From Escherichia virus TH58: 64,000 nucleotides of DNA. Shown here in pieces: positions 2,053 to 51,182 of the stretch. The notes under the pieces are model-generated. The model made no database searches, had not been told where the DNA came from, and saw nothing but the letters and a program-made list of their open reading frames with translations. Location of the stretch: sequence record MT446423.1. The stretch is one strand, 5' to 3'. The translations under genes were made by a program, and so were the position numbers. Every line of letters begins with the position of its first letter. The first letter of the stretch is position 1.

Positions 2053-2086
2053 CAAAAAAAAAAGGGACCTTACGGTCCCTTTTTTA
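2053..2086. terminator. bidirectional intrinsic terminator between convergent rnlB and gene 24
   Basis: A-run, GGGACC-TTAC-GGTCCC hairpin (2064-2079), T-run. Confidence 0.7.
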
Positions 2087-3367
2087 TTCATCTATAATAA
2101 TTTTAGGCAATTTAACACCGAGTAAAACAGACAAGTCTGAACGTCCTGCCATTTTATCCATGTCCCCACCATCAATTATTCTCGCTTCTTTTTCGTCTTT
2201 TGCTACTGTGTAAGGATTTGCTGATAAAGCATATCTAACCAATAATCCGATAGACGGTTGCAAGCTTTCTGGATCAACTACAACTTTAAAAGCACCGACG
2301 TGTTCTGGGTCATCTAAATCTACTCCTTCAGTGTATGGAGCATAAAAGACAGACCCTACAATTTCTTTTTCGCCGAGATTTTCTACAACACCCACAATAA
2401 CATAATCTAATGGGCTGTTGGTATCGCAGTAAAGAGGTAATCCATTTGCCAAGAATCCATAAGCATTTTGTGAAAGATACTTGTCATCTTCTGGCTTATG
2501 TTTTAACCAACCAGAAGCAGCAAGAATAGCAGCTGCACGAGCTGAGGCTACACAAAACGTTGCAGTATAAGTTGTCTCTTTTTGAATGTGTGATACCATT
2601 TCGCATACCATTCGATATAACGAACGACCTGCTTCTGGAGCGGATGCATAGCTCAAGTCAATAAATCCAGTGTCAGTAATTCCAGTAACTTTATAGCGTT
2701 TCGATACAGTAATTAAAGACTGAAGAATATCTTTATTAATTTCATCAGCCATTTCAGTAGCAAGCAAATCTTCTAAGAAGTTAGGGGCATCAAATCCATT
2801 CGCTTCCAAATCTTGCGCTAATTCAACCGTGAGACCAGTTTTAAGTTTACGAGATTTGACTGAAGTTTGCCATTTATTAATCTGGAATCTTGCATCAGAA
2901 ATTTCGCTGCCAGAGCTTTCAAATTTGCTTGTTACCGCTGCATCTGAAAATAACCGTACCTTTAAATGAACGACTGCAATCTGAAGAGCTAATTCTAGAT
3001 CACTTTCTTGAATATCTGCAAATGGTGTATCTTCTAACACTTTATAGACGATATTATTATATTTGAAAAAATCGCCTTTATTTAGTGTGGCTTTTGATTC
3101 TTCTGTGAGCTCAGTAATTTTTTCTCGGTCTACATATCCAACTTCGCCTGCATAAGTAGCACCAGTTTTAAATGTGAATTCGTTATCTGGGTTAAGATAT
3201 TTGATACCATAAAAAGCAGCAACAGGCTGATTAGTTCTTTGTGTTGCTACAATGTCAGAATATATTAATTTAGTCGTAGCGCGAGTCAAAGCAACGAGAT
3301 TTGGGCGACCGATTGAGTTGCTGGTAGACGTTGTAGATTCACGCAATAATTTTTGGATTTTACTCAT
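2084..3367 (-). CDS. 24: head vertex protein gp24
   Basis: 427 aa, same length as T4 gp24; capsid-fold similarity to gp23; synteny. Confidence 0.9.
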   Translation of the reverse strand: MSKIQKLLRESTTSTSNSIGRPNLVALTRATTKLIYSDIVATQRTNQPVAAFYGIKYLNPDNEFTFKTGATYAGEVGYVDREKITELTEESKATLNKGDFFKYNNIVYKVLEDTPFADIQESDLELALQIAVVHLKVRLFSDAAVTSKFESSGSEISDARFQINKWQTSVKSRKLKTGLTVELAQDLEANGFDAPNFLEDLLATEMADEINKDILQSLITVSKRYKVTGITDTGFIDLSYASAPEAGRSLYRMVCEMVSHIQKETTYTATFCVASARAAAILAASGWLKHKPEDDKYLSQNAYGFLANGLPLYCDTNSPLDYVIVGVVENLGEKEIVGSVFYAPYTEGVDLDDPEHVGAFKVVVDPESLQPSIGLLVRYALSANPYTVAKDEKEARIIDGGDMDKMAGRSDLSVLLGVKLPKIIIDE

Positions 3368-3394
3368 TGCATTTTTTCCTTATGTGATATAGAT

Positions 3395-3402
3395 TATTTA
3401 TA
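3395..3402 (-). promoter_or_regulatory. late promoter TATAAATA for gene 24
   Basis: TATAAATA on minus strand about 30 nt upstream of gp24 ATG. Confidence 0.6.
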
Positions 3403-3408
3403 AAGATT

Positions 3409-3439
3409 GTTTACAACGTATTTGGTATGTGATACTATA
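3409..3439 (+). promoter_or_regulatory. early promoter cassette (GTTTAC-N17-TGTGATACTATAG)
   Basis: Member of the dispersed GTTTAC/TGnTAYWRTA family; 30 nt upstream of ORF 3469. Confidence 0.5.
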
Positions 3440-3468
3440 GACTTATCAACTACAGAGGAGTAAACAAA

Positions 3469-3738
3469 ATGACTAAAGCACGTTTCTTACGAGATACTTT
3501 AAAAGTTCTGGAAGCTGAAGCAGTTAAGTTAGTAGAAAAATATGGTGCAAAAGTTAATGGTAATGCCTTCAACAAAGTATGGATGAAAGTTGATTCTGAA
3601 GCTCGAGCTAAAGGTTATTGGGCCACTGATAAACTTGCATCATTCAAAAACAAAGACGGCTCCCCAGCATACGTCCAAGAAGGTATGCCTAATTGGCAAA
3701 ATATTTTGAAAACTTACATCGAAATTGCACAGAAATAA
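3469..3738 (+). CDS. hypothetical early protein inserted between genes 24 and 23
   Basis: 89-aa ORF with GAGGAG RBS, own early promoter, opposite strand to flanking late genes. Confidence 0.45.
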   Translation: MTKARFLRDTLKVLEAEAVKLVEKYGAKVNGNAFNKVWMKVDSEARAKGYWATDKLASFKNKDGSPAYVQEGMPNWQNILKTYIEIAQK

Positions 3739-3748
3739 AACCAAAAAT

Positions 3749-3766
3749 GGGAGACCGAAGTCTCCC
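3749..3766 (-). terminator. hairpin GGGAGAC-CGAA-GTCTCCC; T-run on minus strand (gene 23 terminator)
   Basis: Stem-loop directly downstream of gp23 stop on minus strand followed by U-run in that orientation. Confidence 0.55.
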
Positions 3767-3795
3767 ATAAGGTTATGTATTTTAACGTTAAAGCA

Positions 3796-5364
3796 TTAAA
3801 TTCCTTTAACGTAGACGCGTCTAAAGTAAGCGTTCTTACCAAGGCTGTTCAGGATAGACGGCATACCGGACTGGATGCGAGCACCTGGAGCCTGCAGGGA
3901 ACTTTCAGCAAACGGGTTAACACCGATACCGTAACGAGTTTTAAAGCCCATTACCGGCTGGAAGTTCTTAGGATCGGAACCACGCAGTGGGGTAAGTGCA
4001 ACGTAAGGAGCATAGTAAATACCTGCATCCATTTCGTTAGCGCCTTTGTAACCAACGGTGAAGTAATCCTGTTTAGCATACTGGTCGATGTATACGCGGT
4101 ATTTACCGCCAAGTACACCGGCAAATACAGACTTAGTAGTGTCGGTATTAAAACCAGAAGCCAGACCCTGTGCAGCATAAGAAATACCAGTATCAACTGA
4201 AGCCAGTACGTTAACTACGTTACGGGAAGCGATAATGAAGTTACCTTCACCACGACCGGTTTGACGAGCAATTTCAACTGCTTCTTTATCAATCTGGAAC
4301 AACAGAGCTTTAAAGCTTTCACCGGCCCAACGAGCACCACGGATATCAATCGGGTCCTGGAAGTCAAATACACCAGCTTTAGAACCAACGATATTAGTCA
4401 TACCAGATTTACCAACCTGAGCGGAGTAGTTAATCCAGTCAACAACTTCACGGTTGATTTCCAGCATAATTTCAGTAGCAAGAATACCACTCAGTTCAGC
4501 ATCAGCATCCATACCGTGTACTGCACGGAGGTCTTGTGCCAATTCGATAGAGTAAGCTGCTTTCAGCTGACGAGATTTAGCTTCAATAACTTGTTTGTCG
4601 ATACGGAAGCCCATTTCGTTCCACGGGTTGTCGGTAGAACCATTGAAGCCTTCCTGAAGTTCAGCGATAGAAGTAGCCATACCTTCAGCGATTTCTACCA
4701 GTGCACCAGCTTCCATTTGTTTCTTAATTTCAGCGTCTAATTTAGTTGCATCGGTAGCGCCAGCATCAATTGTTACTACAGCGGAAGCTTGTAGATACAC
4801 AGTACCAGTGTCCTGGAAGAAGTGAGTATAGATATCACCTACAACGGTTTGTGTGCTATCAGCCAGAAGTGGGAATTTCTTAGCAGCACCCTGACCAGAG
4901 AACATCGCGTCCGGAGCATACATCGGATGGAAAGCTTCTTTAGCGTCAGCAGCGATAGGGTCTTTACCATATACTGCACGGAGAGCAAATACCTGACCGG
5001 TAGGGCTGTTCATAGGCTGAACACCACAAATATCAAAAGCGATCAGATTAGGAATAGCACGACGAACCATACCCATAACTGCTGGCCCAATTTGGGTTAC
5101 TGCACCAGAGGTTTGACCTGCTGCGATGTTCTGAGCATTATAACCATGGTCCCCACCAATTTCAGCTTCGGTCAAGAAAGAACCAAATGCCTGAGCGATT
5201 TTCTCGTCTTTATATTCAGGGGATACTTCGAAATCTTTTTCCTGGTTTTCGAAGATTTTAGCGATAATAGCCTGCTTGCTATTAGCGATTTCCGGCAGGC
5301 CTTCACCTTCCAGCAGTTCTTTCCATTTGTCTACGAGCTGAGCTTTAGTTTTGATAGTAGTCAT
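3796..5364 (-). CDS. 23: major capsid protein gp23
   Basis: 522 aa; N-terminus MTTIKTKAQLVDKWKELLEGEGLPEIANSKQAIIAKIFENQEKDFEVSPEY matches T4 gp23. Confidence 0.95.
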   Translation of the reverse strand: MTTIKTKAQLVDKWKELLEGEGLPEIANSKQAIIAKIFENQEKDFEVSPEYKDEKIAQAFGSFLTEAEIGGDHGYNAQNIAAGQTSGAVTQIGPAVMGMVRRAIPNLIAFDICGVQPMNSPTGQVFALRAVYGKDPIAADAKEAFHPMYAPDAMFSGQGAAKKFPLLADSTQTVVGDIYTHFFQDTGTVYLQASAVVTIDAGATDATKLDAEIKKQMEAGALVEIAEGMATSIAELQEGFNGSTDNPWNEMGFRIDKQVIEAKSRQLKAAYSIELAQDLRAVHGMDADAELSGILATEIMLEINREVVDWINYSAQVGKSGMTNIVGSKAGVFDFQDPIDIRGARWAGESFKALLFQIDKEAVEIARQTGRGEGNFIIASRNVVNVLASVDTGISYAAQGLASGFNTDTTKSVFAGVLGGKYRVYIDQYAKQDYFTVGYKGANEMDAGIYYAPYVALTPLRGSDPKNFQPVMGFKTRYGIGVNPFAESSLQAPGARIQSGMPSILNSLGKNAYFRRVYVKGI

Positions 5365-5381: not shown

Positions 5382-6194
5382 TTAGAAACGAGATGCGACT
5401 TTCGCATATAAACTTACATTAGAATTCTGTTCTACCTGAGTTGTGGTAGTGTCAACTGCTTCGGCAACAAAATTAAGACCGGCAGCGTCATTGTCAACTG
5501 TATTTATATTTTCGGTAATAGCGGCTTCTTCTTTAGTAGAACCTTTAACCATTTCTACAATAGCAGTTAACTTAGTACCAAATGCGTCAGAATAATCCAT
5601 ACCTTCAACCAGGCCAATAACTTTTTCTTTCTGAGATTCAGTCAGGTCTTTTACACTTTCATTAATAGCGGTTTCACGCTGAACGTAATTGATATATGCA
5701 TCACGTTTGGTAACTTCTTCGAACAAACGAGCGGTTTCTTCTTTATGTTCGGCCAGCTCTTCTTCCATTTCTGCTACAACATCTACAGATTCTTCTGGAA
5801 CGACAACGTTATGTTCAACAAACAGTTCTTTCAGACCACCAAGCATGGATTCGAACAAATCAGCTTTAATGCCTTTATCAACTGCGATTTGGTTTTCTGC
5901 GAGCCATTCTTTTGCAAGATGGTCTAGGAATTTAGAAGCTTGTTCAGCCAATTTTTTATCAGCTTTCTCTTCAGCATCTTCTTTAGCCTTTTCAACTTCT
6001 TCTTCAGCCTTTTCGGCGATGGCTTTGATATGAGATTCAGCCAGTTTGACTGCTTCCTGCTTAACGGTGGCTTCGAATACAGTGCTGAAATTAGCTTTAA
6101 CGTCCGGAGACAGTTCTACTGATTCGAAAACACTATTAAGAGCAACTGAAGTCTCGATGTTCTGAGCTTCTTTCAAAAGTTGTTCTTTGATCAT
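5382..6194 (-). CDS. 22: prohead core scaffolding protein gp22
   Basis: 270 aa, acidic coiled-coil-rich; position and size as T4 gp22. Confidence 0.8.
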   Translation of the reverse strand: MIKEQLLKEAQNIETSVALNSVFESVELSPDVKANFSTVFEATVKQEAVKLAESHIKAIAEKAEEEVEKAKEDAEEKADKKLAEQASKFLDHLAKEWLAENQIAVDKGIKADLFESMLGGLKELFVEHNVVVPEESVDVVAEMEEELAEHKEETARLFEEVTKRDAYINYVQRETAINESVKDLTESQKEKVIGLVEGMDYSDAFGTKLTAIVEMVKGSTKEEAAITENINTVDNDAAGLNFVAEAVDTTTTQVEQNSNVSLYAKVASRF

Positions 6195-6224
6195 TTTAGT
6201 GTCCTGTGGTTTAGATTACATTAT

Positions 6225-6232
6225 TATTTATA
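6225..6232 (-). promoter_or_regulatory. late promoter TATAAATA for gene 22
   Basis: Minus-strand TATAAATA 31 nt upstream of gp22 ATG, overlapping gp21 stop. Confidence 0.6.
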
Positions 6233-6869
6233 ATGCTTTTAAACTCTCTGCGAGAGCTTTAAATGCTTCGTCAGCACTGTTTTTGGTGATTTCCACCGAA
6301 TTTTCTGATTCTGATATTTGTTTAGGAGTAACCCAAGCATCTGGAGCAGAAGGTCCCCATACAGCATCTACGCCGACGGTTAATTTAAATCCTTCGTTAA
6401 CGATACGGTACCCTTTATTGGTGTCGGTTAAAGAACCAAGACCACGAGAGGAAACACCTGGAATCCAACCAGCTCGTATATTAGCAGCTAATTTATCGCC
6501 GGGACCATGGTCGCCTTCAATAATTCTAGCACGTCCATATACATCGTTTCCTTTCCACCACATATCTTCAATAATGATAGCGGCTTGCATGGGGTCAACA
6601 TTTGCACGAGGTGGATGGTTTAATTCTCCAAGGGCTTGTTTGGTTGCGACTTGTTCTTTAATATAGTCACTTACTGCTTTTTCTAAAACGCGTTTAGGAT
6701 ATAAACGTTTATTTCGGTTAACAACCTCTGCCTGAAGAAAAATACCTTCTATATAAAGCCCTGGTTTTAAGCCAGAATCTTTTCCATCATGAGATTCCAA
6801 CATTGGAACGCCATCAATAATCTCACCGGGTTGACCCCAAGTTTCAATAAGTAACTCGGGTTTATTCAT
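6228..6869 (-). CDS. 21: prohead core protease gp21
   Basis: 213 aa; size and synteny with T4 gp21 (212 aa). Confidence 0.85.
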   Translation of the reverse strand: MNKPELLIETWGQPGEIIDGVPMLESHDGKDSGLKPGLYIEGIFLQAEVVNRNKRLYPKRVLEKAVSDYIKEQVATKQALGELNHPPRANVDPMQAAIIIEDMWWKGNDVYGRARIIEGDHGPGDKLAANIRAGWIPGVSSRGLGSLTDTNKGYRIVNEGFKLTVGVDAVWGPSAPDAWVTPKQISESENSVEITKNSADEAFKALAESLKAL

Positions 6870-23129: not shown

Positions 23130-23147
23130 GGGAGCCCGAAGGCTCCC
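23130..23147 (-). terminator. hairpin GGGAGCC-CGAA-GGCTCCC after gene 8
   Basis: Stem-loop directly downstream of gp8 stop on minus strand, followed by U-run in that orientation. Confidence 0.5.
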
Positions 23148-39095: not shown

Positions 39096-39127
39096 GTATC
39101 TAGGGCATAAAAATATTTCATAAAGAT

Positions 39128-39157
39128 GTTTACTTCTTCTAAGGACATGATACTATA
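39128..39157 (+). promoter_or_regulatory. early promoter cassette (GTTTAC ... TGATACTATAG)
   Basis: Family member upstream of ORF 39185. Confidence 0.5.
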
Positions 39158-39184
39158 GACTTATCAACCACATAGGAAAATGTT

Positions 39185-50666: not shown

Positions 50667-50696
50667 GTTTACTTCTCCTCTAGTTGTGTTACTATA
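50667..50696 (+). promoter_or_regulatory. early promoter cassette inside a 12-bp perfect inverted repeat that sequesters the regB RBS
   Basis: GTTTAC 50667-50672, TGTTACTATA 50687-50696; CTCCTCTAGTTG (50675-50686) pairs with CAACTAGAGGAG (50704-50715). Confidence 0.55.
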
Positions 50697-50723
50697 GAAC
50701 TGTCAACTAGAGGAGAAATCAAA

Positions 50724-51182
50724 ATGACTATCAATTCAGACGTTTTTATCCGCCGTAATAAACTCCGTCGAATCTTTGAAACGGAGTTCCGCAAAATAAA
50801 TGCCGGTATAAAAGATGCTGCAAAGTCTCTTGGACTACCAGGCTTTCATATCAAGTATTCTCAACATCTCTTAGATCGTGCCATCCAGAGAGAAATAGAT
50901 GAGAACTACGTTTTTGAATTATTTCATAAAGTAAAAAATCATGTTAAAGAAGTTGCAGAATTTTTATCAATGCCGGCACGTCCGGATGTTGATGAAGATT
51001 TTGACGAAGGTGTCGAATATCGCCCAGGCCGTTTAGAAATAACTGATGGAAATCTTTGGTTAGGACTTACAGTTTGTCGCGAAAATCCGGCATTCAAAAT
51101 GAAGACTCTTCAATGCAGAATGGCTATTATTAACAGTAAACGATTACCAGGAAAAGCTTCTAAAGCAGTGATTAAAATCTAG
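50724..51182 (+). CDS. regB: RegB endoribonuclease
   Basis: 152 aa; N-terminus MTINSDVFIRRNKLRR; size and position between vs genes as T4 RegB. Confidence 0.7.
   Translation: MTINSDVFIRRNKLRRIFETEFRKINAGIKDAAKSLGLPGFHIKYSQHLLDRAIQREIDENYVFELFHKVKNHVKEVAEFLSMPARPDVDEDFDEGVEYRPGRLEITDGNLWLGLTVCRENPAFKMKTLQCRMAIINSKRLPGKASKAVIKI

Follow-up and report, generated by a model that had tools for sequence, protein, structure and literature searches.

Between genes 24 and 23 of Escherichia virus TH58 lies a short open reading frame (ORF) that runs in the direction opposite to both of these capsid genes. What does it encode, when would it be expressed and how did it come to stand there? The window, meaning the whole 64,000-nucleotide stretch of DNA that was analysed (sequence record MT446423.1), holds at this position the block of head genes from a T4-like phage that belongs to the RB69 group (Mosigvirus). 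An earlier note on this DNA had read the ORF as a moron-type insertion into an otherwise tightly packed capsid operon. The description of the operon is correct, because the gaps across genes 20 to 23 are at most 33 bp. The gap between genes 24 and 23 measures 428 bp, and its sole conserved ORF is the 89-aa frame that the note had placed at 3469–3738. The locus contains the following features, given with the evidence on which each call is based:

2084–3367, minus strand: gene 24, capsid vertex protein, 427 aa; left flank of the cassette (ORF and tblastn)
3402–3395, minus strand: T4-type late promoter of gene 24, TATAAATA; left boundary of the cassette (read from the sequence)
3409–3438, plus strand: putative T4-type early promoter for sigma-70, with the −35 element GTTTAC at 3409–3414, an 18-nt spacer and the extended −10 element TGaTACTAT at 3430–3438, of which TG occupies 3430–3431 and TACTAT 3433–3438 (sigma-70 scan, pattern count and cross-genus conservation)
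3455–3460, plus strand: Shine-Dalgarno sequence GAGGAG, 8 nt upstream of the ATG (read from the sequence)
3469–3738, plus strand: ORF of 89 aa with ATG start, PHROG 6003 family (profile match, selection and fold)
3737–3768, minus strand: intrinsic terminator of gene 23; right boundary of the cassette (folding, terminator call and conservation)
3796–5364, minus strand: gene 23, major capsid protein, 522 aa; right flank of the cassette (ORF)
ending at 3796, minus strand: the gene series 20, 67, 68, 21, 22 and 23 (ORF list)

The identity of the flanks is clear. The product of gene 24 is 94–99% identical to annotated gp24 of Mosigvirus and Tequatrovirus (tblastn), and gene 23 is labelled as major capsid protein in every matching record. 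Beyond gene 24, rnlB follows on the plus strand. The 551 bp around the cassette are 95–99% identical to many Mosigvirus genomes.

The 89-aa ORF is a real gene. Its translation matches the PHROG 6003 profile from end to end (E = 2.1e-45; residues 1–89 against profile positions 1–90 of 90), and it is under purifying selection, with dN/dS values of 0.03–0.15 in unsaturated pairs. Between the window and phage APCEc01, the ORF shows four differences, all of them synonymous. Seven residues (M1, K3, F6, G31, N32, N35 and Q70) are invariant in an alignment of 19 family members. Base composition does not set the ORF apart from its surroundings: its GC content is 36.3%, compared with 37.9% for the window, and its GC3 of 0.27 falls within the 0.24–0.37 of the neighbouring genes.

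The structure of the protein was predicted with AlphaFold2. A model based on the 19-member alignment reached a pLDDT of 94.3 and replaced an earlier one built from five sequences (pLDDT 68). The predicted model comprises two long helices (residues 3–25 and 31–48), a beta hairpin (52–70) and a C-terminal helix (76–88). The protein is soluble, hydrophilic and basic, with a pI of 9.6. The pI lies between 9.2 and 9.9 in 18 of the 19 family members despite about 30% identity, and a net charge of +4 to +7 is conserved in the family. This basic charge is a weak pointer to nucleic-acid binding.

Neither sequence nor fold comparison connected the protein with a known function. Pfam searches with the ORF and the 19 family members gave sub-threshold matches only (DUF4859, 17.9 bits against a cutoff of 22.6), an NCBIfam search of the 89-aa protein returned nothing meaningful, and the best match in a sequence-profile search of the PDB had an E-value of 0.3. 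No nuclease motif or match was detected in Pfam or NCBIfam. When 1.8 billion representatives were searched exhaustively with an HMM, nine hits were obtained, all of them family members except two repeat proteins. The latter match in a motif of roughly 30 residues; one consists of cytochrome-b5-like repeats, and both matches were judged to be due to chance. Foldseek found no PDB structure below E = 1 for the predicted fold, and the fold search of BFVD retrieved a family member only. As modelled, the protein has a confident fold without a known structural or sequence relative. Because these comparisons gave no functional lead, any mechanism proposed for the protein is a reasoned guess.

The cassette has its own GTTTAC/−10 promoter and a GAGGAG ribosome binding site, just as the earlier note had it. 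A −35 GTTTAC, the spacer, a −10 of the form TAnnnT, an A/T-rich tract upstream and an ORF preceded by a Shine-Dalgarno sequence are all present, as expected for a T4-type early promoter. A generic sigma-70 scan reads the same promoter as TTTACA-17-TACTAT with TG. The window contains the pattern GTTTAC-N16-19-TANNNT 20 times, compared with 4.4 occurrences expected, and 19 of the 20 lie on the plus strand; the site at 3409–3438 therefore belongs to the early-promoter family of the phage. The promoter and leader of the cassette also resemble two further early-promoter regions of the window, with 80–83% similarity. Transcription would start near 3445 and, judging by the promoter sequence, probably takes place in early infection. 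Five other early promoters of the window carry an inverted repeat across the −10 element that sequesters the ribosome binding site. No such repeat exists here, where the longest complement is 4 nt, which is the chance level.

Promoter, Shine-Dalgarno sequence and ORF are conserved in eight aligned loci from four genera. The leader alignment of these eight loci contains three conserved blocks, namely the late promoter TATTTATAAA, a −35 element (G/A)T(T/G)TAC and a TG-extended −10 element TA(C/T)TAT, and GGAG is retained at the Shine-Dalgarno position. The leaders also align throughout with the sequence upstream of T4 segD, a free-standing GIY-YIG homing endonuclease gene that occupies the opposite strand of the 23/24 spacer (Edgell et al., 2010, PMC2988022). 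The T4 sequence reads TTTACA-N17-TATTAT, which equals the early-promoter consensus of the T4/PST group (PMC4122927). In RB69, the homologous early and late promoters had already been predicted as Pe:109605 and Pl:109573 (Nolan et al., 2006, PMC1524935 supplement), with a score of 29.9 for the early site in the early-promoter HMM of that study (PMC1524935).

The late promoter of gene 24 is retained in all eight aligned loci and lies 6 bp from the early −35 hexamer, so that the core elements of the two promoters stand back to back. The earlier note had described the promoters as overlapping. This holds for the A/T-rich tract and for the polymerase footprints, which must overlap because the promoters are only 6 bp apart, but not for the core elements themselves.

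At its other end, the ORF abuts the terminator hairpin of gene 23, again in line with the earlier description. The gap between ORF and hairpin is 8 nt, and the U-tract of the terminator (3746–3737) overlaps the stop codon. The hairpin at 3747–3768, ATGGGAGAC-cgaa-GTCTCCCAT, has a 9-bp stem and folding energies of −17.4 and −18.9 kcal/mol on the two strands, with z about −4.5 for both. A terminator, with a UUCG loop and the tail TTTTTGGTTTT, was called on the minus strand only, and for this reason we assign the element to gene 23; the plus strand forms a stable hairpin without a T-run. The hairpin was retained in all compared loci, including the RB32 site that lacks the ORF, and a terminator downstream of gene 23 was reported for all six genomes compared by Nolan et al. 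(2006, PMC1524935).

Given this arrangement, the functional entity might be the transcript and not the protein. Early read-through would be antisense to the 3′ part of gene 23, or late read-through of gene 23 would be antisense to the ORF, and either could tune the late capsid genes or shut off the early gene. Canonical termination on the plus strand is not predicted, because no T-run follows the hairpin, and the closeness of the early promoter to the late promoter of gene 24 would fit such a role as well. However, the low dN/dS values and the confident, conserved fold indicate selection on the protein. The early promoter is directed away from gene 24, the ORF overlaps neither late gene, and RNA antisense to gene 23 would arise only by read-through past the hairpin. 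In phage VR20, T-runs flank the hairpin on both sides, which would make it a stop for the early transcript in that phage. Expression of genes 23 and 24 is normal in phages whose spacer is empty, and the early and late promoters of T4 act at different times. We consider a role of the transcript itself unlikely.

How widespread is the gene? In tblastn searches, the 89-aa protein was found in 239 phage records, compared with 1418 records for gp24. About 120 of the 239 show at least 80% identity and are all of the Mosigvirus type, many of these entries being 99–100% identical at the protein level; about 119 others match at 30–38%. The diverged allele occupies the same place in the same orientation in Gaprivervirus VR20, in Dhakavirus WG01, in phage 04086 and in the metagenomic T4-like contigs L010 and L012, and it is also found at the 23/24 site of some Tequatrovirus. 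The gene is thus conserved within its genus and present at the same site in three further genera. Since the near-universal retention and strong purifying selection concern about 120 Mosigvirus records, the gene may be more important in this genus than the word 'dispensable' implies.

Elsewhere the site is occupied differently. In Tequatrovirus of the JK45 type, a Dhaka-type allele is followed by segD 4 nt after the ORF stop, and phage 04086 has segD at the same 4-nt distance behind the shared promoter. The T4 spacer contains segD alone, behind the homologous promoter, and the spacer of RB32 is empty, its 83 bp consisting of the late promoter, 17 bp and the terminator hairpin. Four states of the site were therefore seen: empty, ORF only, ORF with segD and segD only. 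Genes 23 and 24 are 81–96 bp apart in RB32, Karamvirus, Gelderlandvirus, Jiaodavirus and Acinetobacter phage Acj61, and most Tequatrovirus have an empty spacer of about 85 bp. The ORF is absent from T4, from RB32 and from representatives of Karamvirus, Gelderlandvirus, Jiaodavirus, Tegunavirus, Krischvirus and Lasallevirus. Other inserts were found in the spacer too. Endonuclease genes lie there on the opposite strand in phiR1-RT (Tegunavirus) and on the same strand in a Klebsiella phage, and Krischvirus has two small ORFs on the same strand.

A megablast search with a 1401-nt query across the locus, from which a spread sample of 60 rows was examined, gave a consistent picture. About 120 matches were full length, about 35 records of the JK45 type matched in two pieces over roughly 2060 bp, and T4 and PST spanned 1784 bp. 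In the sample of 60, 28 rows of the Tequatrovirus type spanned 1056 bp, which is 345 bp less than the query.

Some copies are broken. In the RB69 reference, one insertion and one deletion split the ORF into the annotated RB69ORF188c/189c, and the ORF of phage mogra is frameshifted or split too. The RB69 frameshifts are possibly errors of a 2003 sequence. Distant family members (30–40% identity) occur in Vequintavirinae (Acinetobacter phage ABPH49) and in metagenomic contigs, where they lie in long runs of small same-strand ORFs, away from capsid genes; no endonuclease gene is annotated next to the Vequintavirinae homologues.

Comparison of individual loci revealed exchange of alleles at this site. 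The 600 nt of genes 24 and 23 adjacent to the cassette are 98.2% and 97.5% identical between the window and JK45, whereas the ORF is only 48% identical at the nucleotide level. Conversely, JK45 and WG01 share flanks of 66% and 82% identity and an ORF of 90%. This mismatch between flank and ORF identity means that the module of one lineage has taken the place of another's as a whole. For the original insertion, we infer direction and mechanism as follows: an ancestor of the E. coli T-even genera would have acquired a module of about 345 bp in its 23/24 spacer, later copies may have been lost, replaced by or joined to segD, or turned into pseudogenes, and the module would have been swapped from lineage to lineage by recombination in the conserved flanks. 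Either one ancestral insertion or repeated lateral acquisition may underlie the present distribution.

The joint occurrence with segD suggests another possibility, in which the ORF is the cargo or partner of a homing-endonuclease element, the mobile unit is ORF plus segD and the window holds a remnant left after loss of segD. The direct succession of ORF and segD behind one promoter in JK45-type phages and 04086, the retention of promoter and segD without the ORF in T4, the entry of the Dhaka-type allele into a foreign flank along with segD, and the further endonuclease genes hosted by the spacer would all agree with this. Most carriers (all Mosigvirus seen, WG01, VR20, L010 and L012), however, have neither segD nor any trace of it in the 8-nt gap between stop codon and hairpin, and the homologues in Vequintavirinae have no annotated endonuclease gene beside them. 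We regard this origin as very unlikely; a segD that landed downstream of a pre-existing ORF is the simpler reading. The window also differs from the T4 segD locus in that it has no endonuclease gene, neither GIY-YIG nor HNH, although spacer, orientation, homologous upstream promoter region and downstream hairpin are alike.

It is highly improbable that the ORF is an essential core gene of the capsid region, such as an assembly or regulatory factor for gp23 or gp24. A fixed place between capsid genes in four genera, strong purifying selection and retention in almost all Mosigvirus records seen would be expected of such a gene. Against this, the ORF is missing from T4, RB32 and the majority of Tequatrovirus as well as from five further genera whose capsid is the same, it is frameshifted in the viable phages RB69 and mogra, its promoter is of the early and not the late type, and its Vequintavirinae homologues lie among early-type small ORFs and not beside capsid genes. 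On the grounds of these absences and frameshifts we rejected a core function. The earlier note had proposed that an ORF present at this position in all relatives would be a conserved core gene. Within the genus the gene is indeed shared in this way; across the subfamily it is not, and it is no core gene of T4-like phages. The cassette is accessory, being absent or decayed in viable relatives, and at the scale of the subfamily the gene is dispensable.

Morons, a concept of the Hendrix lab, are known from lambdoid and other phages. The cassette resembles them in adding a gene, promoter included, between two genes that stand side by side in related phages, a position documented here by the 81–96 bp separating genes 23 and 24 in relatives and by the 345-bp size difference to most Tequatrovirus. 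The likeness is less clear for the terminator, the only hairpin being that of gene 23, without a T-run on the ORF strand in the window but with T-runs on both sides in VR20. The cassette differs from morons in that there is no prophage expression, because the phage is virulent, and the insert is ancient and genus-wide, not sporadic. Compositional foreignness was rejected, since the GC content is close to that of the window.

The view of the cassette as a moron-type insertion therefore survived in part. It is a discrete, self-contained early cassette at a variable site, as attested by the closely spaced genes 23 and 24 of many relatives, by the allele exchange and by family members in another phage group; the idea that it is a novelty of TH58 was not borne out, in view of the matching GC content, the same allele in about 120 Mosigvirus records and an RB69 counterpart predicted in 2006. 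That a recent insertion specific to TH58 or a few close relatives was acquired from outside, as its own promoter and Shine-Dalgarno sequence, its absence from many relatives with adjacent genes 23 and 24 and its family members in an unrelated phage group might suggest, is extremely unlikely and was rejected on its distribution, given the same allele in several Mosigvirus species, the 30–38% identical allele at the same site in three more genera, GC and GC3 values indistinguishable from those of neighbouring genes, and a homologous promoter kept even in T4. Judged by this distribution, the cassette is old and genus-wide, not a recent insertion.

A closer parallel is provided by promoter-early stem-loop (PeSL) cassettes, which mediate modular shuffling of ORFans in T4-type phages and form excised mini-circles during infection (Arbiol et al., 2010, PMC2839356; Comeau et al., 2014, PMC4122927). 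As in these cassettes, an A/T-rich tract, a TTTACW-N17-TAYWAT promoter, a Shine-Dalgarno sequence and a start codon precede a small ORF of unknown function; the elements found here, TTTACA-17-TACTAT, GAGGAG and ATG, agree with the published consensus (PMC4122927). A GC-rich stem-loop at the cassette boundary, presence, absence and allele replacement among close relatives, and the resemblance of promoter and leader to other early cassettes of the same genome are further points of likeness. The differences concern the stem-loop and the setting. No terminator-like hairpin was called on either strand of 3368–3408, where the stem-loop of a PeSL would lie upstream of the promoter and which instead holds the gene 24 leader and late promoter. 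The cassette's only stem-loop follows the ORF and is that of gene 23. Moreover, the cassette sits on the opposite strand inside a conserved head-gene block, a setting in which PeSLs are infrequent according to the authors who described them (PMC2839356; PMC4122927). Because the stem-loop directly upstream of the promoter is missing, we rejected full membership and did not file the cassette as a PeSL. By analogy, it may nevertheless work like one, and its two boundaries, an A/T-rich tract and a GC-rich stem-loop, are sequences of the kinds at which crossovers occur in the PeSL model.

The same gene at the same place has been annotated before, as RB69ORF188c/189c, as VR7ORF190c and, in Mosigvirus, Dhakavirus and Gaprivervirus, as the 'hypothetical protein' (PHROG 6003) encoded between genes 23 and 24, with the same divergent pair of early and late promoters and the same terminator hairpin as in the window. 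The RB69 reference differs by the two frameshifts that split its ORF, which is intact in the window, and otherwise in nothing of substance.

Taken together, we consider it probable that an autonomous cassette with an accessory early gene occupies a recurrent insertion hotspot here, namely the spacer between the terminator of gene 23 and the late promoter of gene 24. For such a cassette, we infer the transcript ends and the mode of action of the protein as follows. Within minutes of the onset of infection, the sigma-70 RNA polymerase of the host would initiate at the T4-type early promoter, near 3445, and produce a short monocistronic mRNA with a strong Shine-Dalgarno sequence. The terminator hairpin of gene 23, read in reverse, would stabilise the 3′ end of this mRNA and perhaps terminate it in part. 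The predicted product would be a basic, well-folded protein of 89 residues that may act in a stoichiometric manner, by binding to a macromolecule of the host or of the phage at an early stage. From its conserved charge of +4 to +7, the most probable target would be a nucleic acid or an acidic protein. The gene would then, like the majority of small early ORFs of T4, supply a dispensable fitness factor whose value depends on the host or on competition.

A more far-reaching interpretation has, in our estimation, a small chance of being right. The protein would found a new structural family of small basic early proteins in Straboviridae and Vequintavirinae that bind host nucleic acid or a defence or takeover target, the gene would be an exchangeable determinant of host range or anti-defence that selection keeps at the hotspot together with segD, and T4 segD would have in the conserved promoter an early promoter that had been overlooked. 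The comparison does provide evidence that T4 segD stands behind a conserved early-type promoter; according to a 2010 review, no segD promoter could be located.

As a discovery the locus matters little. The gene is already known as a hypothetical protein annotated in more than 200 phage genomes, and the RB69 promoter pair was predicted in 2006. Since an old optional cassette already annotated in more than 200 T4-like phages is involved, the window holds an ordinary and not a new insertion. Its value lies elsewhere, in a clean early-gene module of 345 bp for which a single site shows four alternative states, inside an otherwise conserved head-gene block, which makes it useful for studying the gain, swap and loss of accessory genes in T4-like genomes. 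For an uncharacterised family spanning two phage groups, it also comes with a structural model of high confidence. If the protein were indeed a host-takeover or anti-defence factor, the gene would offer a compact and naturally dispensable target for phage engineering.

The upstream region of segD, the homing endonuclease gene, was aligned with the leader of the 89-aa early ORF (3469–3738, plus strand). A review of the mobile elements of T4 reports that a promoter specific to segD could not be found (Edgell et al., 2010; PMC2988022). In T4 (NC_000866), the segment upstream of segD on the minus strand (locus L006, 5234–5323) could be aligned with the early promoter of the ORF, and it contains the series TTTACA-N17-TATTAT followed by GGAG. 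From this alignment, the T4 state looks like a former arrangement of ORF plus segD, as in phage JK45, from which the ORF was lost while its promoter and Shine-Dalgarno sequence were kept. In phage 04086 (OR842557; locus L003, 3768–4501), the sequence 3′ of the ORF stop closely matches the start of the JK45 segD. The segD gene downstream of the ORF is left without annotation in the 04086 record, which also gives the major head protein in a shortened form.

The promoter and leader of the cassette (3395–3475) share 80–83% identity with two other early promoter–leader regions of the window, at 39114–39177 and 50685–50730. These three sites form a dispersed family of regulatory cassettes of a kind that has been reported under the name of promoter-early stem-loop cassettes, or PeSLs (PMC2839356; PMC4122927). 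Five of the 17 plus-strand GTTTAC promoters carry an exact inverted repeat of 8–14 nt that pairs the promoter spacer with the Shine-Dalgarno region, against about 4–5 nt in shuffled control sequences:

44101, plus strand, early promoter with inverted repeat
47115, plus strand, early promoter with inverted repeat
50667, plus strand, early promoter with inverted repeat (arms TTCTCCTCTAGTTG and CAACTAGAGGAGAA)
54921, plus strand, early promoter with inverted repeat
55635, plus strand, early promoter with inverted repeat

In read-through transcripts that begin farther upstream, such pairing would occlude the ribosome binding site. In the same comparison of plus-strand GTTTAC promoters of the window, this repeat was absent at the 3409 promoter.

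Homologues of the 89-aa protein, at 30–40% identity, are present in a different phage group, where they lie within long runs of small ORFs on the same strand, distant from capsid genes:

6001–6267, homologue in the Acinetobacter phage ABPH49 (Vequintavirinae; locus L014)
4001–4264, homologue in comparison locus L007
5001–5267, homologue in comparison locus L008

Residues 40–72 (window 3586–3684; W-x-T-x-K-L-A-x-F-x-N-K-D-G-S-P-A-Y-V) also resemble part of P0013, a 655-aa metagenomic protein, namely the strand region at the N terminus of its repeated domain, which is taken to be cytochrome-b5-like. This match is probably due to chance, because the motif is not conserved among the diverged Dhaka-type alleles of the ORF; its E-value of 5e-6 is inflated by the five repeats.

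Two copies of the ORF are broken in their sequence records. In the RB69 reference (NC_004928; locus L019, 9211–9633), one inserted and one deleted nucleotide, on either side of a cluster of substitutions, divide it into two annotated fragments, RB69ORF188c and 189c, and in phage mogra it is likewise split into two ORFs. Both are either pseudogenes or sequencing errors.

Gene 24 is present once in the window and as two tandem paralogues in Gaprivervirus, Dhakavirus, Gelderlandvirus and two metagenomic T4-like phages (loci L001, L002, L010, L012 and L016). This duplication does not track ORF presence: Gelderlandvirus carries both paralogues yet lacks the ORF.

From the gene-23 terminator hairpin to where gene 23 ends (3768–3794), the window is identical to JK45, which is classified as a Tequatrovirus, but differs at many positions from the Mosigvirus APCEc01. 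A further hairpin of the same design as this terminator, GGGAGCC-CGAA-GGCTCCC, lies at 23130–23147 and differs from its stem at two positions. In genes 23 and 24, JK45 shares 98% identity with the window, itself of Mosigvirus type, and only about 88% with T4. The capsid region is thus a mosaic that crosses genus boundaries, and one junction lies at or near the gene-23 terminator hairpin.
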